Source of the DNA: Burkholderiales bacterium
GTDB lineage: Bacteria; Pseudomonadota; Gammaproteobacteria; Burkholderiales; Ga0077523
Length of the DNA stretch: 34,071 nucleotides
Assembly (NCBI GenBank): GCA_026125595.1
Contig: JAHCKV010000002.1
Location: forward strand, 1 to 34,071
Reading direction: 5' to 3'
Position 1 is the first letter of the stretch. Every line of letters begins with the position of its first letter. The notes below the pieces were generated by a model that worked only from the letters and a program-made list of their open reading frames with translations, ran no database searches and was not told the DNA's origin. This document shows, in pieces, positions 1-34,071 of the stretch. The position numbers and the translations under genes are program-made.

Positions 1-3000
1 GGATCGCCAGCATCGCGACGATCGCGTCGGGCGAGCGCTCCGCCCACAACCCGACCAGCGCCCCTCGGCCCACGTCCGCCGCGCGCAGCAGGTGCGCCAG
101 TCGGTTCGACCGGCGATCGAGTTCACGATAGGTGCATCGCCAGTCGCCGTGGACGACGGCAACGGCATCCGGCGTGGCGGCGACCTGCTGCGCGAACGCC
201 CCGTGCACGGTGTCGGAAACGGGCGGTTGTGCGGGTCCCGTGCCCCATGCGTCGAGCTGCTGCATTTCGTCGGCGCCCAGCATTGCCAGTTCGGCGATGC
301 GCCGCTGCGGGTGCGCGACCATCTGCCGCAACAGCCGCCGATAGTGACCCGCCATCCGCGCAATGGTCGCCGGCTCGAACCGGTCGGCACGGTACTCGAA
401 CACGCCATGCAATCCGTCACCGGTCTCACGGAACGACAGCGACAGATCGAACTTCGCGGCGGCCGTGGTGAACGGCAGCGCCGACCATTGCAGATCGTCG
501 ATCGCAATCATCGGCGGTGGCGTGTTCTGCAGCGCGAACAGCACCTGGAACAGCGGTGACCGACCGGTCCCGCGCACCACCGGCAACGCGTCGATCACCT
601 GCTCGAACGGTACATCCTGGTGCTCATAGGCGCCCAGCGTCATCCGGCGCACGCGCGCCAGCAACGCATCGACCGGCGGATTGCCGCCGAGATCGGTCCG
701 CAGCACGAGCGTGTTGACGAACATGCCGATCAGTCCTTCGAGGTCCGCGCGGCGCCGATTGGCGATCGGCGTGCCGACCGCGATGTCCGTACCGTCGCAC
801 CAGCGGGACAACAGCACGTCGAAACCGGCCAGCAACGTCATGAACAGCGTTGCGCCGTGTTGCCGGCCCAGGTGATGCAGCGAAGCGGTCTGCGCTGCAT
901 CCAGACGAAACTCGAAGCGCGCGCCGCGCGGCGTTTCGTCGGCATTACCACGATCGGTCGGCAGCGCCAACGCGGGCGGCAGATCCCGCAGCTGGGCGCG
1001 CCAGTAGTCGAGATCCGGCTGGAAATCGAGGGTCCGCTGCCACGCCGCGAAATCGGCGTACTGCACGCCGAGGGGCGGCACGGCAGCGACGGGCTGGTCG
1101 GTGTCCGCCTGATAGAACGTCGCCCACTCGCGCACCAGCACGCCGATGGACCAGTCGTCCGCGACGATGTGATGCAGCACCAGCACCAGCACGTGGTCGT
1201 CATCGGCGGTGCGCAACAGCCGCAGCCGCCACAACGGCGATTGCGCCAGATCGAACGGAAGGCCCACCAGCGTCTGCACCTGCGCATCGATCTGGGCCTG
1301 CCGGTCGATGTCGCCGACCATCCGGACATCGATCACCGGCATGCGCGTCGGCGCCCACGGAGACACTTCGGCGCAGGGGCGACCGTCGACGGCGCGGAAC
1401 ACCGTCCGCAGCGTCTGATGGCGCTGGACGATGCGATCGAAACTGCGTTCGATTCGCGCGACGTCGATCGGCCCCCGCAACCGCAGCACGACCGGAATCG
1501 AATAGGCATTGCTGTCCGGCTCAATTGCGCGATCAACCTGGCGTTGCTGTGCGAACGACGGCAATTCGGCACCGTCGGGCAACGGCGGGATGGTCGTCGC
1601 TGCCTGCCGTGATGTCGTGTCCGCGGCGATGGCCTCGACGAACGCCGCGAGCCGCGATTGTTCGAGCAGCACGCGCAGCAACGTCGATGCCGCACACGTC
1701 GGCCAGCCGCGCCCGACCCCGGTCGCCAGCAGCGAATGTCCGCCCAGCGCGAAGAAGTCGTCCTGCGGGACGACGCGATCGCGGCCGAGCACGTCGGCCC
1801 AGATGCCGGCCACCAGCTCCTGCAGCGGATCGGCCGCGACCTCCGCACCGACGACCGTCGCCGATGTGGCGGACGTCGGCGCCGGCAACGCGCGCCGGTC
1901 GACCTTGCCGTTGGGCGTCAGCGGCATCCGGTCCAGCACCACGATCGCGGCCGGCACCATGGGGGCCGGCAACAGGCCGCGCAGATGTTCACGCAGGCGA
2001 TCGACATCCGGTGCAGCCCCCGCGGCGGACACCACGTAGGCCACCAGTTGCGGATTGTCCGGATCGTCGCGCCGCACGATGGCGACGGCCTGCATGACGT
2101 TCGGGTATCGTCCCAGCGCCGCTTCGATCTCGCCCAGCTCGATCCGGAATCCGCGCAGCTTGATCTGATGATCGCGACGGCCGACGAACGTCAACAGACC
2201 GTCGTCGCGGAAGCGGACGCGATCACCGGTCCGGTACAGACGAGCCGCCGGATCGGTCGAGAACGGGTCCGGCACGAACGCGGCAGCGGTCAGATCGGGC
2301 CGGTTCCAGTAGCCCGCGCTCAGACCCGCACCGCCGATGTACAGCTCGCCGTCCACGCCGATCGGCGCGGGCTGCAGGCGATCGTCCAGCACGTGCAACC
2401 GTGTGTTGGCGATGGCCCCCCCGAACGGCACCGTATCGCCGGTCAGGTGCCGCGGTTCGATGCGCAGCGCGGCCGACCAGATCGTCGTCTCGGTCGGACC
2501 GTACAGATTCCACAGCGCCGCGACCCGGCCGTGCAACCACGTCGCGAGGCCGCGGTCCAGTGCTTCGCCACCACACAACGCCTTCAGTTCGCGCCGGCCG
2601 GCCCAACCGATATCCATCAGCAGGCGCCACGTCGCGGGCGACGCCTGCATCACGCGGATGGCATGGCGGTCGAGCGCAGCGGCCAGTTGCTGCGGATCGC
2701 GCGCAACGCCGCTCGACGCCAGCACCAACCGCGCGCCACGCGCCAGCGGCAGGAACAGTTCGAGCCCGGCGATATCGAAGGACACGGTCGTGACGGCCAG
2801 CAGCCGGTCCTCCGGGTCCAGCCCCGGCGCGACCGCCATCGCATCGATGAAGTTGCGCAGACTGCGGTGGCAGATCGCCACACCCTTGGGTCGCCCCGTG
2901 CTGCCGCTGGTGTAGATCAGATAGGCGAGATCGTCGGATCGCACGTCGATGTGCGGATCCGCATCGCTGCTCGCCGCGATCCGCGCCGCGTCGGCCGTCA

Positions 3001-4756
3001 CGTCGACCACCGGCACATCGCCTGCCGACGCGATGCCGTCCAGCCCCGCCACCAGCAGCCGGTCGAGCCCGGCGTCCGCGACGATGAACGCCAACCGTTC
3101 GGCCGGATAGTCGGGATCCAGCGGCACATAGGCCGCACCCGTCTTCAATACCGCCAGCAATGCGACGACCAGTTCGACCGAGCGCCCCATGCACACGCCG
3201 ACGCGCGCCCCCGGCGCCACGCCTTCGGCCCGCAGGTGCACCGCGAGCCGGTTGGCGCGGGTGTTCAGCTCCGCATAGCTGAGCGCGACGGCAGCGGCAG
3301 CAGATGCTCCCGGCTCGAACACCAGCGCAATCGCATCGCCCCGTGTCCGTGCCTGCGCGGCGAACAGCGCGTGGACCGGTACCGGGTCGACCGCGACCGC
3401 GACGCCGCGTCCCCACTGTTCGAGCGTCGCGCACTCGTTCGCATCCGGTACCGGGACCGACCCGAACGTCATGTCCGGCCGTGTCAAACCGAGCAGGACC
3501 GTCTCGAAATGCCGCAGCAGGCGCTCTGCCGCAGCCGCGTCGATGCGGGCGGTGTCGTGGCGAACGACAATGCGCAACGCGCCGTCGGTCGGCAACACCA
3601 TGATCGCCAGCGGATAGTTCGTGCGCTCGTAGCCGCCGCCATCGGCCAGCGTCAGTGATCCGTCGCCGGTCCCCAGGGCCGCGTCCAAGGACACCGGATA
3701 GTTCTCGAACACCAGTACGCTGTCGAACAGGGGCGTGCCCACGGGCACGTCACTCCAGCGCTGCAGCGCCGTCAGTGCGCAATGGCCGTACTGCTCGCGA
3801 TCGCGTTGCGCCGCCTGCAACGACCGCAACGCGTCGACGACGGAACGCTCGGGATCGACCCGCACCCGCACCGGCACGGTGCTGATGAACAGGCCGACCA
3901 TCCGCTGCGCGCCGGCAAGCGTCGGCGGCCGACCCGAAAGCGTCGCGCCGAACAGCACATCGGACTGACCGCTGTAGCGGGCCAGCAGCAACGCCCACGC
4001 GCCTTGGCACACCGTGTTCAGCGTCAGCCGCGCGCTGCGCGCAAACGCCTGCAATGCGGCGCGCGTCGCCGGCGCCACATCGCGCTGCACTTCGTGGAAC
4101 CGGCCCGGACCGTCGACGACAATCCGGTCGATGCCCAGTGGCGTCGGCGCGTCGAATCCGCGCAAGGTCCCGCGCCAGTACCGTTCGGCCGGCGCCGGGT
4201 CCTGCTGCTGCAGCCAGTCGATGAAATCGCGATAGGGTCGCGTCGGCGGCAGCGACGCCACCGCACCGCGCCGCAGCGCGTCGTAGCACGTCAGCACCTC
4301 GGCGATCAGCACACCGTTGCACCATCCATCCATCAGAAGATGGTGGTAACTCCACACGAACCGATGGCGATTCGGGCCCAGCTGGAACAATGCGCAGCGC
4401 ATCAACGGCGCGGCGTCGAGCGCGAACCCGCGGGCACGATCGGCGGCGAGGAACTGCCGCAGCCGGTCATCGCCACCGTCGGTCTGCCAATCGTCCACGA
4501 CCCAATCCAGCGTCGCGGTGTCGTAGACGACCTGTACCGGTCGATCCACTTCGCGCCAATGGAAGCCGCTGCGCAACACGTCGTGGCGCGCAACGACCTG
4601 CTGCCACGCGGCGCGGAACAATTCGGTGTCGAGCGTTCCCTCCAGCACGCACCAGCGCTGCTCGAAATAGACGCCCTCGCCCGGCGCATACAGCGCGTGG
4701 AACAGCATGCCTTCCTGGGTTGGCGACAGGCCGTAGACGTCGATCGGTGTGGCCAT
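1..4756 (-). CDS. NRPS (3' end outside the window): DCL-type C - A (predicted Gly) - T - C - start of the next A domain
   Basis: ATG 4756 lies 2 nt after the upstream TAA. The frame (codon low coordinate = 2 mod 3) has no ORF-track entry because it has no stop in the window, and no listed minus ORF below 4756 uses this frame. Hand translation gives MATPIDVYGLSPTQEGMLFH... and SYHHLLMDGW (~4321-4345). A ~1890-3400: SFDIAGLELF (2777), VMQASPATW (2648), ALCGGEAL (2576), LWNLYGPTETTIW (2501) and TPNGKVDRR (1904) are all in frame and give the code D I L Q L G L I W K (Gly). T ~1640-1850: FFALGGHSLLAT, Ser codon 1733-1735. Second C ~290-1590: LHHIVADDWS (1148-1174). Third A ~1-250: CTYRELDRRSNRLAHLL...IVAMLAI. 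Confidence 0.85.
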   Translation of the reverse strand, partial: MATPIDVYGLSPTQEGMLFHALYAPGEGVYFEQRWCVLEGTLDTELFRAAWQQVVARHDVLRSGFHWREVDRPVQVVYDTATLDWVVDDWQTDGGDDRLRQFLAADRARGFALDAAPLMRCALFQLGPNRHRFVWSYHHLLMDGWCNGVLIAEVLTCYDALRRGAVASLPPTRPYRDFIDWLQQQDPAPAERYWRGTLRGFDAPTPLGIDRIVVDGPGRFHEVQRDVAPATRAALQAFARSARLTLNTVCQGAWALLLARYSGQSDVLFGATLSGRPPTLAGAQRMVGLFISTVPVRVRVDPERSVVDALRSLQAAQRDREQYGHCALTALQRWSDVPVGTPLFDSVLVFENYPVSLDAALGTGDGSLTLADGGGYERTNYPLAIMVLPTDGALRIVVRHDTARIDAAAAERLLRHFETVLLGLTRPDMTFGSVPVPDANECATLEQWGRGVAVAVDPVPVHALFAAQARTRGDAIALVFEPGASAAAAVALSYAELNTRANRLAVHLRAEGVAPGARVGVCMGRSVELVVALLAVLKTGAAYVPLDPDYPAERLAFIVADAGLDRLLVAGLDGIASAGDVPVVDVTADAARIAASSDADPHIDVRSDDLAYLIYTSGSTGRPKGVAICHRSLRNFIDAMAVAPGLDPEDRLLAVTTVSFDIAGLELFLPLARGARLVLASSGVARDPQQLAAALDRHAIRVMQASPATWRLLMDIGWAGRRELKALCGGEALDRGLATWLHGRVAALWNLYGPTETTIWSAALRIEPRHLTGDTVPFGGAIANTRLHVLDDRLQPAPIGVDGELYIGGAGLSAGYWNRPDLTAAAFVPDPFSTDPAARLYRTGDRVRFRDDGLLTFVGRRDHQIKLRGFRIELGEIEAALGRYPNVMQAVAIVRRDDPDNPQLVAYVVSAAGAAPDVDRLREHLRGLLPAPMVPAAIVVLDRMPLTPNGKVDRRALPAPTSATSATVVGAEVAADPLQELVAGIWADVLGRDRVVPQDDFFALGGHSLLATGVGRGWPTCAASTLLRVLLEQSRLAAFVEAIAADTTSRQAATTIPPLPDGAELPSFAQQRQVDRAIEPDSNAYSIPVVLRLRGPIDVARIERSFDRIVQRHQTLRTVFRAVDGRPCAEVSPWAPTRMPVIDVRMVGDIDRQAQIDAQVQTLVGLPFDLAQSPLWRLRLLRTADDDHVLVLVLHHIVADDWSIGVLVREWATFYQADTDQPVAAVPPLGVQYADFAAWQRTLDFQPDLDYWRAQLRDLPPALALPTDRGNADETPRGARFEFRLDAAQTASLHHLGRQHGATLFMTLLAGFDVLLSRWCDGTDIAVGTPIANRRRADLEGLIGMFVNTLVLRTDLGGNPPVDALLARVRRMTLGAYEHQDVPFEQVIDALPVVRGTGRSPLFQVLFALQNTPPPMIAIDDLQWSALPFTTAAAKFDLSLSFRETGDGLHGVFEYRADRFEPATIARMAGHYRRLLRQMVAHPQRRIAELAMLGADEMQQLDAWGTGPAQPPVSDTVHGAFAQQVAATPDAVAVVHGDWRCTYRELDRRSNRLAHLLRAADVGRGALVGLWAERSPDAIVAMLAI

Positions 4757-4758
4757 GG

Positions 4759-6450
4759 TTACGAATCGCCGGACTTCAATCGCGCCATCAGTTGTCGCAG
4801 CCGCGGATCGGTCGGTTCGGCCGGCGCCGCGGTCGGTCGGGTCGGTGCCCGCGCACGTGACGGTCCGCCGACTGCGATCAACGAGCGCAGATTCGCGACG
4901 CAGCGACGCGCCAGCATGGCGATGGTCGTCGGTTCGAGGACAGCGGGATGATGGCGCCACAGCATCTGCAACTGCCCGTCGCGGACGAATGCCACCACCT
5001 CCAGCGCATGGCCGCGCGCGGCGGCGGGATCGCGTTGCGCCGGCACCGGCTCGGCCGCGAGGCCGCGGATGAAGCCCGTCGCGGGCAGTTCGATGCGCCC
5101 CAGATAGTTGAAACTCACGGTGGCCGGCGACGCCGGCACACGACCCGCCATGCGCAATACGCCGTAGCCGATGCCGGCGTTCGGCACCGCGCCGCGGCAG
5201 GCCTTGACCGCATCCAGCTGGCGCTCGACGGCATCGCGCGGAACCTCGAGGCGCAGCGGATACTGCGCCGTGAACCAGCCGACGGTGCGTGACACGTCGA
5301 GGCGAGCGTCGAAGCCCTGCCGGCCATGGCTTTCGACATCGACGGTCACGGCATCGCCGCGCGTCCACTGACACAAGGTCTGGGCCAGGGCCGTCAGCAG
5401 GATGTCGTCGATGCCGGCCGCGAGCCGCGGCGGTACCGGTCCGAGCAGATCCGCCGTCGCCTCGGCATCCAGCGCGACGGCCGCTTCGACAACGTCGCCC
5501 TCGACCATCCGGGCCGCATCCACCACCCGCAACGGCAACGGAACGGACGGGCGGCACGCGCGAAGCCAGTGGTCGACTTCCGCTTCGAAGCGCGGCCGCT
5601 CGGCGGCCAGGTGCGTCGTCCAGGTGCCGAATCCCGTGCCCTCGGCCCACGCCACCGCCGACCCGCCCCGCAACGTGTCGACATCCCGCACCAGGTCAAG
5701 CAGCAGCACGCGCCACGACACGCCATCGACCACCAGGTGATGGGCGACCAGCAACAGCCGGGCGCCGCGGCTCGTGCCGAGATCGAACAGCACGGCGTGA
5801 AACAGCGGTCCGTCGGTCAGATCGAGGCCCGCTTGCGCAGCCGCGATCGCGGTCCGCAACGCCGCCAGCGGATCCGCCGCCGTCGACAGATCGATCCGTT
5901 GCAGCGGCACCGACACGGCATCGCGATCGGCATGCCATTGCCGCCATTCGCGCCCACCACCGCCGTCGTCGACGGCCTCGAAGCGCAACCGCAATGCGTC
6001 GTGCCGATCCACCAGCGTCTGCAGGGCGGCCCGCAGCCGCTCCGCGTCGAGTGCCGGATCCACGTCGAGCAGCAAACTCTGATTGTGGTGCTGCGGCCTG
6101 CCCGACCCGCGCCCGAGGAATGCCCATTGCATCGGGCTCAACGGCGCCGCCCCGGTGGCCGCCGTCGTCGCATCGGCGTTCGGCAATGTGATCGCCGTCG
6201 CCGCGGCCGCCTGTCCGGCCACCGTCTGATGCTCGAAGATCTGTGCCGGCGTCAGCGCCATGCCGTCGCGATGGGCCTGCGCGACGATCTGCATGCCGGA
6301 TACCGAGTCACCGCCCCGGTCGAAGAAATTGTCGTGGATGCCGATGTCCTGTCGACCGAGCACATCGCGCCAGATCGCCAAAAGTCGTTGCTCGGCGGCG
6401 TTACCCACCGCAGCCCGGTGTCGCCGGGCCGGCAGCACCGGCGCGGGCAA
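4759..6450 (-). CDS. NRPS module, C-terminal segment: T (PCP) - E (epimerization) - short C-terminal tail
   Basis: Frame of ORF 4759..6450 (TTG). It begins ALPAPV, which is the expected continuation of NGKVDRR. T ~6230-6420: NFFDRGGDSVSGMQI (Ser codon 6304-6306; the GGDS form is typical of carriers feeding E domains). E ~4800-6150: LSPMQWAFL, HHNQSLLL, AHHLVVDGVSW (~5715-5745). TAA 4761-4759. Confidence 0.9.
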   Translation of the reverse strand: MPAPVLPARRHRAAVGNAAEQRLLAIWRDVLGRQDIGIHDNFFDRGGDSVSGMQIVAQAHRDGMALTPAQIFEHQTVAGQAAAATAITLPNADATTAATGAAPLSPMQWAFLGRGSGRPQHHNQSLLLDVDPALDAERLRAALQTLVDRHDALRLRFEAVDDGGGGREWRQWHADRDAVSVPLQRIDLSTAADPLAALRTAIAAAQAGLDLTDGPLFHAVLFDLGTSRGARLLLVAHHLVVDGVSWRVLLLDLVRDVDTLRGGSAVAWAEGTGFGTWTTHLAAERPRFEAEVDHWLRACRPSVPLPLRVVDAARMVEGDVVEAAVALDAEATADLLGPVPPRLAAGIDDILLTALAQTLCQWTRGDAVTVDVESHGRQGFDARLDVSRTVGWFTAQYPLRLEVPRDAVERQLDAVKACRGAVPNAGIGYGVLRMAGRVPASPATVSFNYLGRIELPATGFIRGLAAEPVPAQRDPAAARGHALEVVAFVRDGQLQMLWRHHPAVLEPTTIAMLARRCVANLRSLIAVGGPSRARAPTRPTAAPAEPTDPRLRQLMARLKSGDS

Positions 6451-9400: not shown

Positions 9401-9535
9401 ATCGGTCCACGCGATGCCGCGGGCTTCGAGCTGCGCGCGCAGCAGCTCCCGTTGCGCCGGCGGCAATGCCGCGACGCGACCCGCCAGCACGCGCAGCCGG
9501 TCGTCCGCGGTGTTCACCGGATTGAAATCGCTCAT
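6401..9535 (-). CDS. NRPS module, N-terminal segment: C (accepts polyketide acyl) - A (predicted Asn). Same gene as 4759..6450, interrupted by an apparent +1 frameshift
   Basis: ATG 9535 lies 14 nt after the LLM stop and is in frame with ORF 6401..9682, whose first 49 aa are an overlap artefact. C ~8050-9350: LSAAQRHLWVVHQL, LHHLVADGWS (~8940-8965). A ~6455-7990: LSYRDLDAAANRVARHL, LYTSGSTGTPKG, SIGFDATITGLF, FVKLTPAHL, FVIGGEAL, LLNEYGPTETVVG, YRTGDLARY, LRGYRIEIGEVE, LTANGKVDRR. The specificity code, hand-aligned to GrsA numbering, is D A T K V G E V G K, the Asn code as I remember the Stachelhaus table. Sense leaves this frame at ~6454; the nominal stop is 6401. Confidence 0.88.
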   Translation of the reverse strand: MSDFNPVNTADDRLRVLAGRVAALPPAQRELLRAQLEARGIAWTDVAAMPPSAPGESTASTGELPLSAAQRHLWVVHQLQPDTSAYHIALTWTLTGPLEVPALQQALQQVVERHDALRTVFLARDGKPYQRVLPHVACLLGVSDLRAPALAGIEAERIRQNALQPFDLTQAPLVRAQLLRTAEERHVLVLVLHHLVADGWSRGVLLRELAAGYRAAREDRATTAIPLTYQYSDYVRDQQAWLESAECRRQTAYWKTQLAALTPLDLPSDRPRGRAMEQPARTATRTLPSTLRPLLRAAGVQCGATPFMLLLTAFDVLLHRYTGRSDIAVGIPVAGRTGPQTADLIGFFVNTLVIRARADAAATFTDWLDIVKRAVADAFDHGDLPLANVVDAVVTTRDPGRNPLFDVMFQYQSDGYRMQNAAAPGLAFPGLHMSQDGIELAHTKFDMSWHVLDREDGLLLAVEYRTDLFDDARIERMLDHFTVLVEAALREPARHVGALPLLTEAERTRIAAWQRGPAPVGSGTPAARWAGLVERFERQVDRTPDARAAASPDGALSYRDLDAAANRVARHLIDRGVGAESRVGVCLPRTPQLLAMLLGVLKAGAAYVPLDPALPERRLRFMIDDAQLAVLIAGETEVARLYPVDAGTDGGPALLVPDRDRPVLDACADTRIARSVWPEQLAYVLYTSGSTGTPKGTQLTHGGLMHYLDWCLARYPVAAGQGAPVHSSIGFDATITGLFAPLLAGRAVMLLPDDASLVGLASALRADHGFVKLTPAHLAALPPLLEAQPLPADARLPRAFVIGGEALNESHVSFWRDRYPAIALLNEYGPTETVVGCCVHEVEPGDRGSIPIGRPIAGAALYLLDGHLQPVPVGVTGEICIGGAGVARGYLHRPDLTAERFVPDPFGARGCVMYRTGDLARYRSDGVVEYLGRADQQVQLRGYRIEIGEVEAALSRQPEIAETVVVLHVVGAAPALVAYLRVVDGTTVDVPALRQRLAQWLPPYMVPGHFVVLDAFALTANGKVDRRGVARAGAAGPATPGCGG

Positions 9536-9549
9536 CGCCGGGGGCCCGA

Positions 9550-10635: not shown

Positions 10636-10768
10636 GCCGAGTCCCGTGGGAAAGGTGGTGTCCGGTGGCTATCGCGCGCGATCCACTTCGGCTGGCGCCC
10701 CGGCCTCGATGGCGTCGAGCAGTTCTTCGAGCACGGCGGCCGGTGCAGGCACCGCCGTTGCCGATCGA

Positions 10769-15298: not shown

Positions 15299-15326
15299 GT
15301 CGGTTGCCAAAGTTCGCGAGCGCCGG

Positions 15327-22600: not shown

Positions 22601-22789
22601 CCGCCAGAACGCATCGGGATCGACGGCGCCCCCGGGAAAGCGACACCCGATGCCGACAATCGCAACGGGTTCGTGGGCTGCACCTTCGACCGCGGCCAGC
22701 CGCGCCTGCAGCCGATCGATGGCCTGCAGTGCACGCGCCATCCGGCGTTCGTCGGCGTCCGGCGTCGGAGCGTTCACGGGCGCATTCAT
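19523..22789 (-). CDS. Type I PKS module 2, N-terminal segment: docking helix - KS - AT (malonyl-type) - N-terminal half of DH. Same gene as 15327..19697, interrupted by an apparent -1 frameshift
   Basis: ATG 22789 lies 16 nt after the upstream TGA and is in frame with ORF 19523..23017, whose first 76 aa are an out-of-frame overlap. [23 protein letters not shown] forms a helix. KS ~21400-22672: [25 protein letters not shown] (Cys codon 22154-22156), [31 protein letters not shown] ~20300-21095: [27 protein letters not shown]. Linker [13 protein letters not shown]-half: [23 protein letters not shown]. Sense ends after FEIHGLFAP (~19697); the remainder to the nominal stop at 19523 is nonsense. 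Confidence 0.88.
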
Positions 22790-22805
22790 CGGCGTACGGT
22801 CCGGA

Positions 22806-25800: not shown

Positions 25801-27791
25801 TGCACCTGGCGCAGCGTGCGTTCGAGATCGGCCGTCGCGTGCAGCACGTTGGCGGCGACGATCACATCGAACCCGGCCGGATCGAGACCGCTTGCGGTCT
25901 CCGGTTGCTCGATGTCGAGGACCGTGCAGCGGATGAACGGATAGCCCGCAAAGCGCGTGCGCGCCGCGTTCACGAAATGCGCGGACACGTCGCTGAACAC
26001 ATAGTCGACGGGACCGATCGAGGCCAGCATCGGCAACAGGTGGGCCGTCGTGCCGCCAGTGCCCGCGCCGATCTCGAGCACCCGCAACGGGCGGCCATCG
26101 ACCGGTGTCGCGATCGACTGCCGCAACGCCTCCTGCAGCAATGCGTTCATGACCCGCGCACCGGCCGACGCTTCGTACAGCGCGGTCAGCAGCGTCGGAT
26201 CACCGCCGGGGAACAGCAATTGCAGCGGATCGACGCGACCCTGCAGGATCGCATCCAGTTCATTGCCGCAGCGGCGCAACAGTACCGACTCCGGCGCGGC
26301 CGCGACACCGCCGTCCGCCGGCGGCGGGGACAGCGGGATATCGGCGATCGGCGGCCACGCGGCTGCTTCGTCCGGCGCGACGCCCGCGCCGGCGAGCATC
26401 GCGACGCAGCGCGCGAACAGCGGCTGCCGGGACGGCTCGACCCCGAGACGGACCGCCAGTTGCGCGACCGACCCGGTCCGATCGGTCAGCGCGTTCCAGC
26501 CCAGTCGCCGCAACGCGTGAGCCGCATAGGTAACGCTCGACGCTTCGAGATCCGGCTGCAGCCGCTGGTAGTCGACGACATCCGGACCGGACAACAGCGC
26601 CGCCCACCGCGGCAACGTTCGCTCGCGCACGTCGTCGGGCGACCGCAGCAGCGTCGACGCCAGTGGCTGCGGCGGCCACGCCACGTCGTACAGCGCGGTG
26701 ACCGGCATCGGATCTTCGACCGGCCTGGCCGCCACCGTGACGAGTCTCAGACCGCGCAGCCACCCGAGCAGGGTGCCGTCGTCCGCGAACCATTCGATAT
26801 CGACCGATGGTTCGTCTCCGCCATCGCGGCAACGCGCGCGGACCCACGCCGGTACCGCCTCGCGGGCACCGAACCAGGCGAACGCGTCGACGGATCTCGG
26901 CAGCCGTGTGCGGTCATCCGAAATGACGAGGCCGGTCAACTGCAGGCCGGCATCGACCAGCACCGGATCGGGCGTGAGGGCCGCCGTCGCGCGCCGGTCT
27001 GCCGTCAGCCGCGCCAACGCTTCACCGGGACCGAAGGCGATATCGTCCAGCACCCGGAATGCGGCGCCGTACCGGATGCCGCGGGCGGCGAAGCGCGCGT
27101 AGAAATCCGCCGCCGCGAGTCGGTCCGGCAGATGGGCGAGCGCGGGCGGTTGGATCGAGGGCGCCCTGTCGCGCGGTGCCGGGACGAGATCGCCTTCGGC
27201 GTGCAACGTCCAATGGGCGTCCACCGCGCTGTGCAGTTCGAACCGTTGACCGTCGGCTTGCCGATGCACTGCGGTCTGCACGCGGACGCCGCCTTCCTCC
27301 GGCAGCCACAGCCCTTGGGCGAGCGTGACGCCGCGCAACTGGCAATCATGTCCGGACAGCGCGTGGCCTGCGGCCATCGCGAGGCACAGGTATCCGGCCG
27401 CCGGAAACAGCGTCGACTCGAACACGCGGTGATCGGACCACGGAATGCCGGTGGTCCCGTCGATCACCGCCTCGAATACCCGGATGGCATCGCCGGCCAG
27501 CGGCAACGGACGGCCCGGCAGCGGATCCGCACCACGGTCCGCAGCCGGTGGCGCGCCGATCACCGGCACCGCATCGAGCCAATGCCGACGTCGCTGGAAC
27601 GGATAGCGTGGCACGTCGACTCGCCGCCGGTTGCGCCCGGCATCGAACCCGGACCAGTCGACCGGCACGCCGGCTTCGTACAACGCCGCGAGACTGGTCA
27701 GCATGCGTTCCCAATCGGGCGCTGCGCCGCCGCGACCCGCACCGCCGGCACGCAGACTCGGCAACCACAACCGTCCGCCGCCGCCGAGACA
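22806..27791 (-). CDS. Type I PKS module 1, C-terminal segment: post-AT linker - DH - cMT - ER - KR - ACP
   Basis: Frame of ORF 22806..28784, meaningful from [14 protein letters not shown] (27791); upstream of that the ORF is out-of-frame AT. A 22-codon bridge LPGCDVCIEIGPQPVLLALAAG lies in a third frame (27793-27858). Linker [10 protein letters not shown] ~27580-27610. DH ~26700-27540: [32 protein letters not shown]. cMT ~25600-26250: [37 protein letters not shown]. Scrambled patch 25085-25278. ER ~24090-25010: [24 protein letters not shown] ~23520-24060: [37 protein letters not shown] ~23010-23220: [14 protein letters not shown], Ser codon 23106-23108. TGA 22808-22806. Confidence 0.88.
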
Positions 27792-30352
27792 ACCCTGCGG
27801 CCAGCGCCAGCAGCACCGGCTGCGGTCCGATCTCGATGCAAACGTCGCAGCCGGGCAAGCGCGTCCAGCGTCGCCATCGCGTCCATGAACGCGACCGGCT
27901 GCCGGATCTGGTCGACCCAGTAGCCGGCGGCGGCGGCCTCGGCGCCGGCGAGGCCGCCGGTCATGCTGGAGATGAAATCGATCCGCGCGGCACCGAACCG
28001 GACGGCATCGGCATGCCGGCGGAACGCCGGCTGCATCGGCGCCATCAGCGCCGAATGAAACCCGTGCGACACAGCGAGCCGCGTGGTCGGAAGGCCGCGG
28101 GCTTCGAGCGCGTTCAGCGCCGCACCCAGCGCAGCGGACGGGCCGGCGATCACGGTATGGGCCGGACCGTTGCACGCGGCGATCTCGACACTTTCGGGCA
28201 GCAACGCGGCGAGGTCTTCGCGGGACGCGCGCACCGCCGCCATGCCACCGGCCGTCGGCAACGCGTGCATCAATCGCGCCCGCGCCGCGAGCAGGCCCAG
28301 CGCCTGGGGCAGATCGACGATGCCCGCCTCCACCGCCGCCGCGTATTCGCCGACGCTGTGCCCGACGACGATCTGCGGCGCGACACCCCACGACCGCCAC
28401 AGCGCGGTCAACGCGTACTGCAGCGCGAACAGCGCCGGCTGCGTGAAGACGGTGGCATCGATGTCGGCCGACGCCGCGACCGTGCCGTCCGGATACAGCA
28501 CCGACCGCAGCGGCCGCTGCAGCATCGGATCGACGATCGCGGCGCACCGGTCGATGGCGTCGCGGAACACCGGCGCGCGTTCGTACAGCGCACGGCCCAT
28601 CTGCACGTACTGGGCGCCCTGCCCGGTGAACAGGAACGCGATTCGCGGCGCGGCGCGGTGCCCGACTTCGGTCGACGGCGTTGCCGCCGCGCGGTCGAGC
28701 TGATCGCGCAGACCCGCTCCATCGGCGGCGACCCACGCGCGACGCAGTGCGAAGTGCGACCGTCCCGTGTTGGCGGAAAAGCACAGATCGGCCAGTGCGA
28801 CGCCGTCTTCACCGAGCGCGTCCCGGTAGCGGGCCACCTGTTCGGCCAGCGCGGCCGGCGACCGTGCCGACACCGCCAGCACATGCAACGGACGATCGAC
28901 GGTGGCAGACACCGCCGGCCGGGACGGCGGCGCTTCCTCGACGATCAGATGCACGTTGGTGCCGCTCATGCCGAAGCTGCTGACACCACCGCGCCGCGGT
29001 CCGGCCGTCGCCGGCCATTCGGTCAGCGCGGTGGGCACGGTGAACGGCAGGCGCGCCCACGGAATCCGTGGACTCGGCGTCGCGAAATGCAGATGGGCCG
29101 GAATCTGCCGATGCTGCAACGACAGGACCAGTTTCATCAGGCCGGCGACACCCGCCGCGCCTTCGAGATGACCGAAATTGGTCTTCACCGAACCGATCAA
29201 CAGCGGCGTTGCGCGCCCGGCGAACACGTCGTTCAGCGCCATGACTTCGATCGGATCGCCGAGCGGCGTCGCGGTGCCGTGGGCCTCCACGTACTGCACG
29301 TCGGCCGGCTGCAAGCCGGCCCGTTGCAGCGCGGCGCGGATCACCGCAGTCTGTGCCGGTCCGCTGGGCGCGGTCAATCCGTTGCTGGCGCCATCGTGGT
29401 TGACCGCCGACCCGCGCACGACCGCGAGCACGCGATCACCGTCGGCCAGCGCGGCCGACAGTTTTTTCAGCACGACGATGCCGCAGCCTTCGCCGCGAGC
29501 ATAGCCCTGGGCCGCTGCGTCGAACGTGCGGCAACGGCCATCGGGCGCCAGCGCGCCCAGTCGGCAGAACCCGATCGTGGCCTCCGGCGACAGCATCAGA
29601 TTGACACCGCCGGCCAGCGCCAGCGTCGCTTCACCGTCGCGCAGGCTCTGGCAGGCCAGATGCACGGCGAGCAACGACGACGAACACGTCGTGTCCAGTT
29701 GCAGCGTCGGCCCCTGCAGACCGAACACGTACGCGATGCGGCCGGCGGCGATGCTGCGGTTGGTGCCGAGACTGCTGTGGGCATCGATGCGCGTCGGATC
29801 GCCGGAGCGCACGCTGCGCTGCGCGTAGTCGTCGAAGCAGACGCCGACGAACACGCCGGTGGCACTGCCGCGCAGATCGAACGCCGGCAGGCCCGCGTGT
29901 TCGAGCGCTTCATGGGTGACTTCCAGCAACAGGCGCTGCTGCGGATCCATCCGGTCGGCCTCGCGTGGCGCGATGCCGAAGAACTGCGGATCGAACTGGT
30001 CGACCTGGTCGAGAAAGCCACCGTGCCGGACATACATCGTGCCGGGTCGCGTCGGATCCGGATCATGGTAGCGATCGATGTCCCACGCGCGCGACGGCAC
30101 TTCGCCGATCGCATCGACACCGTTTTCCAGCAGTCTCCAATACGCTTCCGGCGTGTCGGCACCGCCCGGGTAGCGGCATGCCATGCCGATGATCGCGATC
30201 GGTTCGGCGGTCCGCGGCGTCACCTGCCGCTCGACGGCCTCCAGTTGCGCGCGCAACTGGCGGATCTCGACCGTCGCCTGCCTCAGCAGATCGCGCATCC
30301 GGTTGGGCTCGGCGGCCGCCGATGGCGCGGCCCCATGGGATTCAATCGCCAT
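27698..30352 (-). CDS. Type I PKS module 1, N-terminal segment: docking helix - KS - AT (malonyl-like). Same gene as 22806..27791, interrupted by two apparent +1 frameshifts
   Basis: ATG 30352-30350 shares its A with the upstream TGA. It is in frame with ORF 27698..30835, whose first 161 aa are an out-of-frame overlap. MAIESH...RMRDLLRQATVEIRQLRAQLEAVER forms a coiled-coil. KS ~28930-30205: IAIIGMACRYPGG, DTTCSSSLLAVH (Cys codon 29684-29686), EAHGTATPLGDPIE, GSVKTNFGHLEGAAG, GTNVHLIVEEAP. AT ~27860-28650: FLFTGQGAQY, GHSVGEYAAA, VSHGFHS. The homology-supported reading leaves this frame at 27859, so the tail to the nominal stop at 27698 is R/A-rich nonsense. Confidence 0.88.
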   Translation of the reverse strand: MAIESHGAAPSAAAEPNRMRDLLRQATVEIRQLRAQLEAVERQVTPRTAEPIAIIGMACRYPGGADTPEAYWRLLENGVDAIGEVPSRAWDIDRYHDPDPTRPGTMYVRHGGFLDQVDQFDPQFFGIAPREADRMDPQQRLLLEVTHEALEHAGLPAFDLRGSATGVFVGVCFDDYAQRSVRSGDPTRIDAHSSLGTNRSIAAGRIAYVFGLQGPTLQLDTTCSSSLLAVHLACQSLRDGEATLALAGGVNLMLSPEATIGFCRLGALAPDGRCRTFDAAAQGYARGEGCGIVVLKKLSAALADGDRVLAVVRGSAVNHDGASNGLTAPSGPAQTAVIRAALQRAGLQPADVQYVEAHGTATPLGDPIEVMALNDVFAGRATPLLIGSVKTNFGHLEGAAGVAGLMKLVLSLQHRQIPAHLHFATPSPRIPWARLPFTVPTALTEWPATAGPRRGGVSSFGMSGTNVHLIVEEAPPSRPAVSATVDRPLHVLAVSARSPAALAEQVARYRDALGEDGVALADLCFSANTGRSHFALRRAWVAADGAGLRDQLDRAAATPSTEVGHRAAPRIAFLFTGQGAQYVQMGRALYERAPVFRDAIDRCAAIVDPMLQRPLRSVLYPDGTVAASADIDATVFTQPALFALQYALTALWRSWGVAPQIVVGHSVGEYAAAVEAGIVDLPQALGLLAARARLMHALPTAGGMAAVRASREDLAALLPESVEIAACNGPAHTVIAGPSAALGAALNALEARGLPTTRLAVSHGFHSALMAPMQPAFRRHADAVRFGAARIDFISSMTGGLAGAEAAAAGYWVDQIRQPVAFMDAMATLDALARLRRLHRDRTAAGAAGAGRRVVSAAADGCGCRVCVPAVRVAAAQRPIGNAC

Positions 30353-33300
30353 CAGCGCCGACCCGGTCCGGCACCGGTGATCTCCGCGGCCAGCAGATCC
30401 GCCAGCTCCGCTTCCGACAGATCGTCCAGGTCGGCATCGGCCCCGGCCGTTGCGACGGATCGACCCGCGGACGTCGCGAAATCGGTCACCGGTGGCGCTG
30501 CAGCCCCGAGTTGCGCCAGGTGCTCGGCCAACGCGTGCAGCGTCGGATGGTTCCACGCCAGCGTCGGCTCGAGCGGATCCGCCAACGCCAGTTCGAGCTC
30601 CAGATCCCGCGCCAGCTCGACGGCCATCACGGAATCGACGCCGTAGTCGGCGAACGCCTTGTGCGGATCGATGTCGGTCTCGGGGAACCGCAGGTGCCGC
30701 GCCAGCCACGTGGTCAGCCAACGCCGGATCGTCGCGGCGCTGCGCGCCACCGCGGGTGCCGGCTGTCCGCTTTCGCCCGATGCCGGCGCCGGCGTTGCGC
30801 CGCGCGGCGATGCGGTGCCGGCCCGTCGCAGCCACGCATCCAGATCGCCGTCTTCACCGGCCAGCGCCTGCTCGATGTCGCCGATGCTGTCGCGATAGCC
30901 GGCGATCCATTGCGTGACGGCGCCAGGGGACAGCAGCACCGATTCTTCCGCCGAGTCGCGCAACGCGCGGTCGGCCGCGATGTCGAAGCGCGCCTGCGTC
31001 CAGTCCATGCCACGCCGCCACCCCGCGTCACGCACGGCCGACGCCCCGAGCGCGGCGCGCACGATGGCCCACGCGGCCACCTCGCCGACCGCGACGCAGG
31101 TCCGCCGTTGCGCGGTCACCGCATCGACAAAGGGCGCCGACGTCGTCGCGTGGCGCGCCGCCGCCCGCTCGGCGACGGACCGCAATGCCGACGCGATATC
31201 CGGCATGCCGAGCGCATCGGCGAGAAATCCGTCCAGCGTCGCCGGTTGCCGCAACGTCCGGGCGCCGAGATACATCGCGAGCGCCTCGGTCGGTCCTTCG
31301 AAGATCCGCAGGACCCGCGCATCGCGCAGCATCTGCGGCGCGAGATTGGTCTCGATGTAGCCGCGACCGCCGAGGCATTGCATCAGGTCGTCGGTCGCGC
31401 GCCAGTACCACTCGGGACCGAGAATCTTGCACGCGGCATAGACTTCTTCGGGCACCGCGGCACCGCGATCGAGGCGCTCGCACACGGCATCGACCAGTGC
31501 GCCGAGCGCGGTGATGCCCGCCGTGAGGCCGCTGAGTCGCGTGAGCGTGACCGGATGATCCAGCAACCGGCCGGTCGCGATGGAGCGCCGTGCGCCGTAG
31601 CGCAACATCAACTGCGCGCAGCGCTTCATGCCGCCGACGCAGGCGGCCGCGATCGTCAGCCGGCCGTACATCATCGCGTCCTGGGCGACGGCCATGCCTT
31701 CGCCGGCGCCGCCCAGCCGGTCCGCCGCTCCGACCGGAACGTCGTTCAGATGCACGGCGTTCTGCACCATGCCGCGCATCCCCATGGTCGGCGCTTCGGC
31801 GCCCTGCCGCAGTCCCGGTCGCCCCTTGCGCACCGCGAATCCGCTGATGCCGATTGCATGGCCGCTGCCGTCGACTTCGCGGACGAACACGTGGGTGACG
31901 CCGGCCCACGCGGCGGAGCCGCTCCAGATCTTCGTGCCGTTCAGCGACCAGCCGCCGGCCCGCGGCGTCGCCGACGCCGTGATGCCATGGGGATGGGAGC
32001 CCGCCCCTTCTTCGGTCAGTGCGAACGCCGCCAGCTCCCGGCCGGCAGCCAGTTGCGGCAGCAGCTCGTCGCGCAGCGCCGCATCGCCATGGCGCAGGAT
32101 CGGCCGCACGCCCAGCACGTTGTTCAGGCCGACGAACAGGCCGAGCGTCGCATCGATCGCGCCGAGCTGCTCGATCACCTGCCGCATCGCCCGGTGTCCG
32201 AAGCCGAGGCCGCCGTGGCTCGCCGGCACCTGCATGCCGAGCAGGCCGCGATTGCCGAAGTCGAGCACGACGCCGGGCGACAGACTGCGGCGCTCGTCCA
32301 TCAGCCGGGAATTCAGCGACGTGTCCGCGTAGTCGCGCAGCCATTCGAGCAGCGCCGCCGGCGCGGCGGCCACGGCCGGCTCGACCATCGCCGCCGGCTT
32401 CGAAACCGGAACCGCCACCACGCCGTCCAGTGGCCAGCGCGCCAGCGACGTCAGTTCGCCGGCCGCGAAATCCGCGGCGCAGCGCCGGCGCCGCACCTTG
32501 CCGCTCGGCGTCTTCGGCAACGATCCCGGCTTGACCAGCACGATGACCCGCACCTGCAGACCATGGTCCCGTGACACGGCGGCGCGAATCGCATCGAACA
32601 CGGCTGCCGGCTCGAGCCGGCGCCAGGCCTCGCGCTCGACTTCATGGACGACGACGAGCCGGGGCTCCTCGTCATGATCGACGGTGAAAGCCGCGCCGCC
32701 GCCGGTGGCGAGATCCGGGTGGCTGTGCTCGACGCTGAGCTCGATGTCCTGCGGCGCATGGTTGGCACCGCGGATGACGATCAGGTCACGCAGCCGGCCG
32801 GTCACGTACAGCGCGTCTTCATGGCGGAAACCCAGGTCGCCGGTGCGCAGGAATGGCCGCGGGTCGTTCCCGGTCGCGAGGCGGCCGTCGAACACTGCGG
32901 CACTTCCGGCCTCGGACCGCCAGTATCCCGGCGCGACACTGGCACCGGTCACCCACAGCTCACCGACGTGTCCGTCTTCGACCGGGCGCCGCGTGGACGG
33001 ATCCACGACGCGCAGTTCGAGCCCGTCGACGACGCCGCCGCAGGCCACCAACGGCTGCGCCGTCGCACTCGTCGTCGGCACCATCTGCACGCGGTCGCCG
33101 CGCAACGCATCGCGATCGACGTGCAGCGTCGTCGGCTGCCCGTGCCGCCGGACACCGGACACCATCAGCGTCGCTTCGGCCAGGCCGTAACACGGCAGGA
33201 ACGCCTCGGCGCGGAATCCGTGGGCGGCAAACGCGGCGGCGAATCGCTTCAGCGTACCGCTGCGAACAGTCTCGGCGCCGCTGAACGCGACGGTCCATGG

Positions 33301-34071
33301 ACTCAGGTCGAGACCTTCGCGATCCTGCGGCGCGATGCGGCGCAGGCAGTGCTCGTACGCGAAATTCGGCCCGCCACTGGTCGTGGCACGGAAATGGGAG
33401 ATCGCTTCGAGCCACCGTACCGGCCGGCGCAGGAACGCCGCCGGCGCCATCAGCGTCACCGGGAACCCGCTGAACACCGGCTGCAGGATCCCGCCGATCA
33501 GTCCCATGTCGTGATAGGGCGGCAGCCAGATCACGCCGCGGCTGTCCGGCCCATGGCCGAATACGCGGTGGATCACGCCGAGGTTGTGGTGCAGGTTGGC
33601 GTGGGTCACGCAGACCCCCTGCGGCTGCCGGGTCGACCCCGACGTGTACTGCAGCATCGCGATGCCGTCGACCTCGACCGCGGCGACGTCATGGCCGATC
33701 GTGGCGTCCGGCAACCGATCGGTCTCCCAGCACGGCACGGCCGAACCGGCGCAGTGGCCCGCGTGGATCAGCAGCGGCCCCAGCGCGTCGCGCAGCTTCG
33801 CCGTCGTCAGCACCGCCGCCGGCACCGCATCCGCGACGATGTGCTGCCAGCGATCGGCATCCTGATGGCGACGCGGCGGCGGCACCGGCACGGCGATCAG
33901 TCCGGTCTGCAGGCACGCGAAAAAACCGGCGACGAAATCGAGCCCCGGCGGATACACCAGCAAGACCCGCGGCCGCTCGCCTCCCGCTGCCGGCGGACCG
34001 AAGTGCTCGCACAGCACGCGGGCGATGGCACCGGCGCGCCGGTGCAGATCGCCATAGGTACACGCGATCGC
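30352..34071 (-). CDS. Loading protein: fatty acyl-AMP ligase (FAAL) - acyl-CoA/ACP dehydrogenase (ACAD) - ACP tridomain; 5' end lies outside the window
   Basis: The frame is open from the window edge (AIACTYGDLHRRAGAIARVLCEHF...) to TGA 30354-30352. ORF-track entry 30352..34017 is the same frame from an internal GTG. FAAL ~32428-34071: LQYTSGSTRQPQGV (STRxPxG variant typical of FAALs), PPYHDMGL, FLRTGDLGF, LPKTPSGKVRR. ACAD ~31258-32355: FALTEEGAGSHP, LNGTKIWSG, RIFEGPTE (position of the ACAD catalytic Glu). A spacer of about 170 aa has no motif I recognise. ACP ~30508-30741: FADYGVDSVMAVEL, Ser codon 30631-30633. Confidence 0.9.
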   Translation of the reverse strand, partial: AIACTYGDLHRRAGAIARVLCEHFGPPAAGGERPRVLLVYPPGLDFVAGFFACLQTGLIAVPVPPPRRHQDADRWQHIVADAVPAAVLTTAKLRDALGPLLIHAGHCAGSAVPCWETDRLPDATIGHDVAAVEVDGIAMLQYTSGSTRQPQGVCVTHANLHHNLGVIHRVFGHGPDSRGVIWLPPYHDMGLIGGILQPVFSGFPVTLMAPAAFLRRPVRWLEAISHFRATTSGGPNFAYEHCLRRIAPQDREGLDLSPWTVAFSGAETVRSGTLKRFAAAFAAHGFRAEAFLPCYGLAEATLMVSGVRRHGQPTTLHVDRDALRGDRVQMVPTTSATAQPLVACGGVVDGLELRVVDPSTRRPVEDGHVGELWVTGASVAPGYWRSEAGSAAVFDGRLATGNDPRPFLRTGDLGFRHEDALYVTGRLRDLIVIRGANHAPQDIELSVEHSHPDLATGGGAAFTVDHDEEPRLVVVHEVEREAWRRLEPAAVFDAIRAAVSRDHGLQVRVIVLVKPGSLPKTPSGKVRRRRCAADFAAGELTSLARWPLDGVVAVPVSKPAAMVEPAVAAAPAALLEWLRDYADTSLNSRLMDERRSLSPGVVLDFGNRGLLGMQVPASHGGLGFGHRAMRQVIEQLGAIDATLGLFVGLNNVLGVRPILRHGDAALRDELLPQLAAGRELAAFALTEEGAGSHPHGITASATPRAGGWSLNGTKIWSGSAAWAGVTHVFVREVDGSGHAIGISGFAVRKGRPGLRQGAEAPTMGMRGMVQNAVHLNDVPVGAADRLGGAGEGMAVAQDAMMYGRLTIAAACVGGMKRCAQLMLRYGARRSIATGRLLDHPVTLTRLSGLTAGITALGALVDAVCERLDRGAAVPEEVYAACKILGPEWYWRATDDLMQCLGGRGYIETNLAPQMLRDARVLRIFEGPTEALAMYLGARTLRQPATLDGFLADALGMPDIASALRSVAERAAARHATTSAPFVDAVTAQRRTCVAVGEVAAWAIVRAALGASAVRDAGWRRGMDWTQARFDIAADRALRDSAEESVLLSPGAVTQWIAGYRDSIGDIEQALAGEDGDLDAWLRRAGTASPRGATPAPASGESGQPAPAVARSAATIRRWLTTWLARHLRFPETDIDPHKAFADYGVDSVMAVELARDLELELALADPLEPTLAWNHPTLHALAEHLAQLGAAAPPVTDFATSAGRSVATAGADADLDDLSEAELADLLAAEITGAGPGRR

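Follow-up and report, generated by a model that had tools for sequence, protein, structure and literature searches.

The lipid tail of mycobactin is prepared by MbtM, an enzyme of the fatty acid-AMP ligase (FAAL) type, MbtL, an acyl carrier protein (ACP), and MbtN, an acyl-ACP dehydrogenase, and its 2,3-desaturation takes place on the carrier. A single polypeptide in which FAAL, acyl-CoA dehydrogenase (ACAD) and ACP domains are fused, NvlI, is the proposed loader of nostovalerolactone in Nostoc punctiforme, where it would activate a fatty acid and oxidise it on the carrier (PMC9324945). The puwainaphycin (puw) synthetase of Cylindrospermum alatosporum comprises PuwC (FAAL), PuwD (ACP), PuwB (KS-AT-DH-cMT-ER-KR-ACP) and PuwE, in which a polyketide synthase (PKS) is joined through AmT and Ox domains to a nonribosomal peptide synthetase (NRPS) (PMC4219810). 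In PuwE, the Ox domain is placed after the PKS and before the first NRPS module and makes the 2-hydroxyl of the puwainaphycin fatty acid (PMC4219810), and the related enzyme MupA alpha-hydroxylates a beta-keto thioester in vitro only when this is bound to an ACP (PMC10952193). Here we describe a 34,071-bp stretch of DNA from a Burkholderiales bacterium (Ga0077523; assembly GCA_026125595.1, contig JAHCKV010000002.1, positions 1 to 34,071; hereafter the window), which encodes a FAAL/ACAD-primed PKS-NRPS assembly line with a stand-alone luciferase-like monooxygenase (LLM) between its polyketide and peptide halves. The cluster is an orphan, yet it belongs to a large family, itself uncharacterised, and its parts are all known.

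Domain architecture of the cluster

The window is the whole contig, a singleton in the sequence collection searched, and its first and last genes are cut by the contig ends. The G+C content is 70% along the whole window, and in such high-GC DNA the open reading frame (ORF) listing contains long spurious ORFs in all six frames. For this reason, coding frames were located by third-position GC (GC3 frame plot). Along the full window, codon position 2 is poor and position 3 rich in GC when read in the reverse direction; therefore, all coding is on the minus strand and transcription proceeds from 34071 to 1. Pfam scans of ten long minus-strand stop-to-stop ORFs called domains with E-values from 1e-11 to 1e-183, which in the direction of transcription give the order FAAL-ACAD-ACP, KS-AT-DH-cMT-ER-KR-ACP (twice), KS-AT-KR-ACP, LLM, C-A-T-E and C-A-T-C-A(cut). 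The KS triads, in-module AT domains, carrier serines and C, A and T core motifs define a modular type I cis-AT PKS/NRPS hybrid.

An earlier note on this DNA, made from the letters alone, had proposed a colinear FAAL/ACAD-primed PKS-NRPS line of lipopeptide type, and the confirmed domain order supports it. Its hand-called domains agree with the Pfam models and its domain string is exact in order, although it did not notice the broken frames described below and left the strand unstated. The layout on one strand with near-zero spacing that it reported was also recovered, the starts and stops of the genes leaving anything from a 1-nt overlap to 33 nt between neighbours. It had placed the termination and tailoring genes outside the stretch, in line with a window that ends where the contig does. 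The genes and domains are as follows.

30352..34071, minus strand: gene 1, the loader, FAAL-ACAD-ACP, 5'-truncated by the contig end
32446-34062, 31258-32355 and 30517-30720, minus strand: FAAL, ACAD and ACP domains of gene 1 (Pfam)
22806..30352, minus strand: gene 2, PKS1, KS-AT-DH-cMT-ER-KR-ACP, with about six single-base indels
29084-30205, 27866-28636 and 26721-27524, minus strand: KS, AT (followed by a frameshifted C-terminal part) and DH domains of PKS1 (Pfam)
25617-26114, 24108-24971, 23517-24053 and 22998-23198, minus strand: cMT, ER, KR and ACP domains of PKS1 (Pfam)
15327..22789, minus strand: gene 3, PKS2, KS-AT-DH-cMT-ER-KR-ACP, with one indel
21545-22672, 20141-21082, 19179-20005 and 18144-18668, minus strand: KS, AT (HAFH), DH and cMT domains of PKS2 (Pfam)
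16569-17429, 16002-16532 and 15489-15689, minus strand: ER, KR and ACP domains of PKS2 (Pfam)
10669..15298, minus strand: gene 4, PKS3, KS-AT-KR-ACP, with two indels
14081-15208, 12821-13630, 11249-11839 and 10820-10960 onward, minus strand: KS, AT (HAFH), KR and ACP domains of PKS3 (Pfam)
9550..10635, minus strand: gene 5, LLM, FMN-dependent luciferase-like monooxygenase (MupA/Atu3671 family; Pfam Bac_luciferase), stand-alone
4759..9535, minus strand: gene 6, NRPS1, C-A-T-E, split into two ORFs by one extra base
8009-9352, 6467-7930, 6205-6390 and 4876-6153, minus strand: C, A, T and E domains of NRPS1 (Pfam)
2..4756, minus strand: gene 7, NRPS2, C-A-T-C-A(cut), 3'-truncated by the contig end
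4345, 1904-3364 and 1744, minus strand: C domain of DCL type (HHLLMDG), A domain and T domain (GGHSL) of NRPS2 (Pfam and motifs)
1174 and from about 250, minus strand: second C domain of NRPS2 (HHIVADD) and the first approximately 80 aa of the third A domain (Pfam and motifs)

The catalytic Cys-His-His residues are kept in three of three KS domains, and DH, ER, KR and cMT motifs are present in the PKS modules. Both AT2 and AT3 show GHSxG together with the malonyl signature HAFH, so the methyl branches must come from the cMT domains. The cyanobacterial orthologues of the KS-AT-KR-ACP module (PKS3) also match Pfam Beta-ketacyl_N. Rfam and tandem-repeat scans of the window returned nothing relevant; one weak 24-nt tandem duplication (2 copies, 80% match) at 24544-24592, inside ER1, is probably insignificant.

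A family shared by cyanobacteria and Burkholderiales

When the FAAL-ACAD-ACP protein was compared with one genome per species, 165 relatives were obtained (53% identity for the best), mostly from cyanobacteria, with Methyloversatilis and a few others besides. Dozens of these loci carry the same PKS genes downstream in the same order. Gene-for-gene colinearity was observed in Aquincola sp. MAHUQ-54, whose cluster is split over two contigs (JAZIBG010000014 and JAZIBG010000053) and is traceable only up to the second NRPS, and in two marine cyanobacterial metagenome-assembled genomes (MAGs; JBCCQQ010000008 and JBCCHX010000001, loci L040 and L003). Further relatives lie on the long contigs Logan SRR31832933_1981 and ENA ERZ27256895 k141_5117440. 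Compared with the window, the megasynthases of these colinear relatives are 50-57% identical and the LLM 74-82%. The order in the cyanobacterial MAGs matches the window through FAAL-ACAD-ACP, the two methylating PKS genes, KS-AT-KR-ACP, LLM and C-A(Asn)-T-E and into C-A(Gly)-T-C-A(Val)-T-x, the gene that the contig end cuts short in the window; after it come C-A(Gly)-T, KS-AT-KR-ACP, then C-A-T-Cy-A-Ox-T and more. The relatives thus extend past the window with a further glycine, another KS-AT-KR-ACP and a heterocyclising and oxidising module.

No characterised cluster that shares the gene order of the window at 70% identity or more came to light among the relatives or in the literature consulted, and a literature search on the domain combination and on the all26xx locus tags (treated below) found no product assignment. 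Within what was searched, the claim of the earlier note that no characterised cluster matches therefore stands, as nothing there united this order with identities of 70% or more and a product assignment. Its treatment of the single features as unprecedented is overstated: the FAAL-ACAD-ACP loader, the LLM and the peptide start each have precedents, and the whole architecture is kept in Aquincola and the MAGs. We consider it likely that the window cluster is a member of a widespread, chemically uncharacterised family and a fragment of an ordinary type of lipopeptide cluster.

Reduced forms of the arrangement were also encountered. Three Agrobacterium/Rhizobium loci (L075, L077 and L080) comprise FAAL, KS-AT-KR-ACP (43% identity), LLM (64%) and NRPS without the ACAD and the methylating modules. 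Two gammaproteobacterial MAGs (L043 and L047) have FAAL-ACAD-ACP followed by LLM (47%) and NRPS and carry no PKS modules; in this minimal variant the LLM would act on the loader ACP.

Loading module and polyketide half

Gene 1 places a FAAL, an ACAD with three subdomains and an ACP in one polypeptide with a KS next to it, the arrangement of a tridomain loader. Its Pfam matches are AMP-binding (1.6e-53) with DIP2-like, Acyl-CoA_dh_N, Acyl-CoA_dh_M and Acyl-CoA_dh_1 for the three ACAD subdomains, and PP-binding. NCBIfam fatty-acid--AMP ligase models match as well, the MbtM model among them, and in the same kind of search the ACAD domain matched the carrier-protein-dependent dehydrogenases PigA and RedW. 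The catalytic Glu of the ACAD lies within IFEGPTE and the ACP Ser within GVDSV. The same architecture occurs in more than 100 mostly cyanobacterial loci, and the cyanobacterial tridomain homologues are about 45-53% identical to the window loader.

MbtM, MbtN and MbtL provide the three activities predicted for the window loader in the same logical order; they are, however, separate proteins, and their acyl group goes to a lysine side chain and not into a PKS as starter. NvlI, likened here by its published domain order, shares the tridomain order and is directly followed by type I PKS modules with cMT. The nvl pathway differs in combining PKS with tetronate-type chemistry, without NRPS and without LLM, and the function of NvlI is itself a proposal and not a biochemical demonstration (PMC9324945).

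The puw synthetase resembles the window cluster over a longer stretch. Both use a FAAL-activated fatty acid on a carrier and a fully reducing, C-methylating extension module, and in both the PKS closes with a minimal extension, with a TIGR04020-type oxygenase placed between it and the first C domain. In the window, by contrast, the FAAL is fused to ACAD and ACP, the oxygenase is a separate gene, and there are two methylating modules where puw has one. The last module of the window has a KR and no aminotransferase, a domain that Pfam found nowhere in the window, and would give a 3-hydroxy instead of the 3-amino chain of puw. The predicted peptide, D-Asn-Gly-X, also differs from the Val-Dhb-Asn/Gln and so on of puw. 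The window cluster thus works like puw but is not a member of the beta-amino lipopeptide synthetases.

The luciferase-like monooxygenase

The LLM matches TIGR04020 at 491 bits (cut-off 244.45) and covers the model in full (positions 1-341 of 341). Among solved structures that of PuwE (PDB 6KET) is the closest, matched over the full length at E 2.9e-108 and about 50% identity. Homologues with 65-82% identity number in the thousands and occur in cyanobacteria, Proteobacteria, Planctomycetes and Myxococcota. In the window, in Aquincola, in the cyanobacterial MAGs and in the Rhizobium loci, the LLM gene comes directly after KS-AT-KR-ACP. Because of this position between ACP3 and C1, and because it belongs with PuwE and MupA, the LLM most likely adds a 2-hydroxyl to the carrier-bound acyl chain, by analogy with these enzymes. 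The earlier note had counted the interposed LLM as a novelty and gave it no role; the position of the PuwE Ox domain and the MupA family provide the precedent.

Like MupA, the LLM is a TIGR04020 protein that would act in trans at a module junction, on the alpha-carbon of a carrier-bound thioester. MupA, on the other hand, serves a trans-AT PKS with a KS0-containing bimodule, whereas the junction in the window leads from a cis-AT PKS to an NRPS and has no KS0. Moreover, MupA needs a beta-keto substrate, while the corresponding window module has a KR, so that the LLM may act before or after the KR. Across phyla, identities for the LLM (65-82%) lie well above those for the adjacent megasynthases (40-57%), which suggests either strong constraint or a separate evolutionary history.

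The peptide half and its counterpart in Anabaena

Specificity codes were extracted by alignment to GrsA, and recovery of the published GrsA code DAWTIAAICK served as a check. The A1 code, DATAVGEVGK, agrees with the Asn code at nine of ten positions, and the A2 code, DILQLGLISK, with the Gly code at nine of ten. The cyanobacterial orthologues of A1 read DATK(I/V)GEV(G/C)K. The Gly module is kept in all relatives compared, and the third A domain, which is cut by the contig end in the window, is specific for Val in the cyanobacterial orthologues. The E domain has the motif HHLVVDG, and the N-terminus of the C domain after it, LSPTQEGMLFH, is of DCL type. In the two high-GC members, the window (at about 7000-7200) and Aquincola, Ala occupies code position 278, where the cyanobacterial orthologues have Lys, which may reflect a substrate shift.

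The same peptide start is found in Anabaena PCC 7120, where LLM, C-A(Asn, DATKIGEVGK)-T-E and C-A(Gly)-T-C-A-T follow in the order of the window, with identities of 67% for the LLM, 44% for C-A(Asn)-T-E and about 50% for the second NRPS over its first 324 aa. The LLM and NRPS accessions are BAB74352, BAB74348 and their neighbours. By accession arithmetic from HetR (alr2339, BAB74038), we take BAB74352 and BAB74348 to be all2653 and all2649. On this mapping of locus tags, the peptide half of the window would match the start of the nine-gene all2649-all2641 cluster. FurA boxes and a link of that cluster to siderophore production are described in a report citing Jeanjean 2008 (PMC4005646), and its product is absent from the known cyanobacterial siderophores in a 2026 preprint (10.64898/2026.07.24.740629). 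The Anabaena locus differs from the window in having three exporter genes between LLM and NRPS and no FAAL-ACAD-ACP/PKS genes directly upstream. The likeness assigns no product to the window. Two PCC 7120 loci (L083/L084 and L088) lie about 25 genes apart on opposite strands, one with LLM, exporter and NRPS (BAB74352 to BAB74348) and the other with FAAL-ACAD-ACP and PKS (BAB74377), and may cooperate.

Proposed pathway and product

The domains are read directly from the sequence, and the chemistry that we infer from them would run as follows. The FAAL would adenylate a free fatty acid and load it onto the fused ACP, where the fused ACAD would desaturate the bound acyl group to a 2-enoyl thioester, by analogy with MbtM/MbtN/MbtL and with the function proposed for NvlI. 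Each of the two fully reducing modules would then add one malonyl unit, C-methylated by its own cMT. A third unit would be added by KS-AT-KR-ACP, leaving a 3-hydroxyl, and the MupA/PuwE-type LLM would hydroxylate C2 on ACP3 with FMNH2 supplied by an unlinked reductase; no flavin reductase gene lies within the window. The predicted acyl chain is 2,3-dihydroxy-4,6-dimethyl-alk-8-enoyl. NRPS1 would join this chain to Asn or a close analogue and epimerise the residue to D-Asn, after which NRPS2 would add Gly by way of its DCL-type C domain, followed by a third residue that is Val in the orthologues from cyanobacteria. The product core given in the earlier note is kept as regards the 3-hydroxy acyl chain and D-Asn-Gly-X, but the methyl groups are expected at C4 and C6 and not at C2 and C4, since that chain had been numbered before the last extension. 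As a characterised or proposed precedent exists for every step, the pathway implies neither new enzymology nor a new biosynthetic logic.

A 3-hydroxy-2,4-dimethyl fatty acid together with Asn and Gly is also a feature of rakicidin, which prompted a comparison with this class. The APD-CLD compounds (rakicidin, vinylamycin and BE-43547), whose modules run from lipid-PKS through Gly/Sar and Ser plus PKS (the APD unit) to a last amino acid, were rejected as candidates, as Asn is incorporated by the last module, m6, in rak (PMC5075396) and by a first module with E here.

Frameshifts in the assembled sequence

Relative to its orthologues the cluster contains 8-10 single-base indels, and the reading frames are accordingly interrupted. 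They were located with a purpose-written frameshift-aware protein-to-DNA alignment, in which Aquincola orthologues were used for every gene; PKS1 was aligned to four orthologues (Aquincola, the two cyanobacterial MAGs and Methyloversatilis), with a three-frame reading as support. The approximate positions are as follows.

27856 and 27795: AT1 of PKS1
25255, 25191, 25150 and 25083: psi-KR linker of PKS1
19700: inside DH2 of PKS2
10800 and 10750: ACP3 and the C-terminal docking helix of PKS3
6454: A10 motif of NRPS1, NGKVDRR|ALPAP, with one extra G

No indels came out of this alignment for the FAAL-ACAD-ACP gene, for LLM and NRPS2, or for PKS2 in its C-terminal half. A further pair of frameshifts at about 26482 and 26367 appeared in the Aquincola alignment and was absent with the three other orthologues, and it was not counted. 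In a tblastn comparison of paralogous modules, a frame switch was seen in DH2 between 19712 and 19685 and another in the C-terminal part of AT1. Direct reading showed one base missing ahead of WVLHAAG in DH2, and in AT1 two shifts within 60 nt, around CDVCIEIGPQPVLL. The PKS3 ORF as written meets a premature stop at 10769-10771, and its PP-binding match ends at profile position 52 of 67; its C-terminus was read in three frames against the C-termini of Aquincola and the cyanobacteria. The stretches 27900-27750, 25300-25050 and 10820-10740 resemble local low-quality consensus. In practice, the approximately ten frameshifts fragment automatic gene calls and domain predictions on this contig, and heterologous expression from the uncorrected sequence would fail.

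Alternative explanations

Some findings weigh against the proposed pathway. No family member has a known product, and each chemical step is one that we infer. At Stachelhaus position 278, A1 has Ala in the window and in Aquincola where Asn codes have Lys; because of this replacement its substrate may be an Asn analogue instead of plain Asn. KR3 (11249-11839) is atypical, lacking the LDD and Trp stereochemistry motifs and having an unusual Rossmann motif, AGDLVEGLG. KR3 may even be inactive, and no stereochemistry is predicted here for the 3-OH. The LLM, too, could act elsewhere, as that of PCC 7120 adjoins transporters and the Asn-NRPS with no adjacent PKS. The monooxygenase domain of MtaG/MelG hydroxylates the alpha-carbon of T-bound glycine, and if the LLM did likewise, in place of acting on the polyketide, a labile alpha-hydroxyglycine would be formed and possibly cleaved oxidatively to an acyl-D-Asn amide. 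Such a role would suit the constancy of the Gly module among the relatives, the cohesion of LLM, C-A(Asn)-T-E and C-A(Gly) in PCC 7120 away from any PKS, and the conservation of the LLM far above that of its neighbours. We nevertheless find it improbable, as the LLM is about 50% identical from end to end to the Ox domain of PuwE, which acts on an acyl chain, and MupA acts on an ACP-bound polyketide (PMC4219810; PMC10952193). In addition, the gene keeps its place directly behind the KS-AT-KR-ACP module from Rhizobium to the MAGs, and in PCC 7120 the FAAL-ACAD-ACP/PKS locus about 25 genes off offers a possible PKS partner. N-acyl-D-Asn is known as a prodrug motif from colibactin, xenocoumacin, amicoumacin and zwittermicin, and a first module C-A(Asn)-T-E followed by a DCL C domain is the hallmark of ClbN/ClbP-type systems. 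The window begins its peptide in exactly this way, and exporter genes adjoin the Anabaena and L089 homologues, so that a periplasmic ClbP-type peptidase could be imagined to remove lipid-D-Asn after export and leave an active molecule starting at Gly. This is more improbable still: the window and the 10-kb flanks examined in seven relatives yielded no ClbP-like (beta-lactamase-fold) peptidase, C1 is fed through an N-terminal docking region by a costly three-module PKS and is not a starter C domain, and so elaborate a methylated and hydroxylated lipid is unlikely to serve as a throw-away group.

The frameshifts bear on whether this pathway still operates, since ten of them could mean that the cluster is dead in the source organism. 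If they were real mutations, the window would hold a decaying pseudogene cluster and the organism would no longer make the compound. In favour of this are the sites that the indels disrupt, namely AT1 and the psi-KR (both in PKS1), DH2, ACP3 and, in NRPS1, the A10 motif, and the Aquincola and cyanobacterial orthologues, which are intact single genes (2465-2628 aa for PKS1 and 1557-1586 aa for C-A-T-E). The distribution of the indels speaks against it. They are clustered, with two within 60 nt, about four within 180 nt and two within 50 nt, and direct reading places at least four of them within a cgg repeat or short runs of G or C, a pattern typical of local consensus errors. Away from the shifted stretches, moreover, the sequence shows neither in-frame stops nor deletions nor lost catalytic residues. 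Because of this clustering, this context and the lack of any other degradation, the indels are most likely errors of the sequencing or assembly consensus, and we regard decay of the cluster as unlikely.

Possible biological role

The product is most plausibly a membrane-active or metal-binding lipopeptide. Directly upstream of the cluster, the two cyanobacterial MAGs encode ExbB, ExbD, TonB, an AMIN-domain TonB-dependent receptor and an MFS_3 exporter, and a relative from an ENA metagenome has genes for a TonB-dependent receptor and a MacAB-type exporter. These flanks, together with the FurA and siderophore data from Anabaena, are the grounds for considering metal binding. No TonB genes were found within 10 kb in the flanks of Aquincola and L090, which argues against a siderophore role as a general property of the family. 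A siderophore-type or metal-binding role, which is not established for the window, is therefore one that we take seriously while leaning slightly against it.

More speculatively, the cross-phylum family of cyanobacteria, Burkholderiales and others might consist of undescribed amphiphilic metallophores, in which a 2,3-dihydroxy, methyl-branched, unsaturated lipid head would sit on D-Asn-Gly-... and whose peptide half would be that of all2649-all2641; taken as a whole this picture is doubtful. If it were true, solving one member, for instance in the culturable Aquincola sp. MAHUQ-54, would assign a product to hundreds of related clusters and to the Anabaena cluster, which has been an orphan from 2008 on. 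If functional, the window cluster would make a lipopeptide whose scaffold is new and whose lipid head is unusual, and would offer a handle on a large biosynthetic gene cluster family common to cyanobacteria and Betaproteobacteria, including an iron-stress-linked cluster of a model organism. Among the known cyanobacterial metallophores of lipopeptide type, cyanochelins A, B and C, fatuamide A and the lusichelins were compared and rejected, as their starters and monomers differ (PMC12628792, 10.64898/2026.07.24.740629, PMC11877528, PMC12210259). Their assembly lines start with FAAL-PKS-thiazole-Phe-Gly-betaOH-Asp, with salicylate or with thiazolines, and their descriptions mention neither an ACAD nor a start with Asn-E.

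As for the end of the assembly line, Aquincola (L087, 1-9900) and a 271-kb Logan contig (L090, 1-9800) share a divergent operon with a TubC_N-C-A-T docking module and a CmlA-like diiron beta-hydroxylase whose fusion partners are a docking domain and a terminal reductase. The operon also encodes a methyltransferase and a class III aminotransferase, and an MbtH gene is present in L090 only. This gene content suggests that lines of the Aquincola type may end by reductive release followed by transamination.

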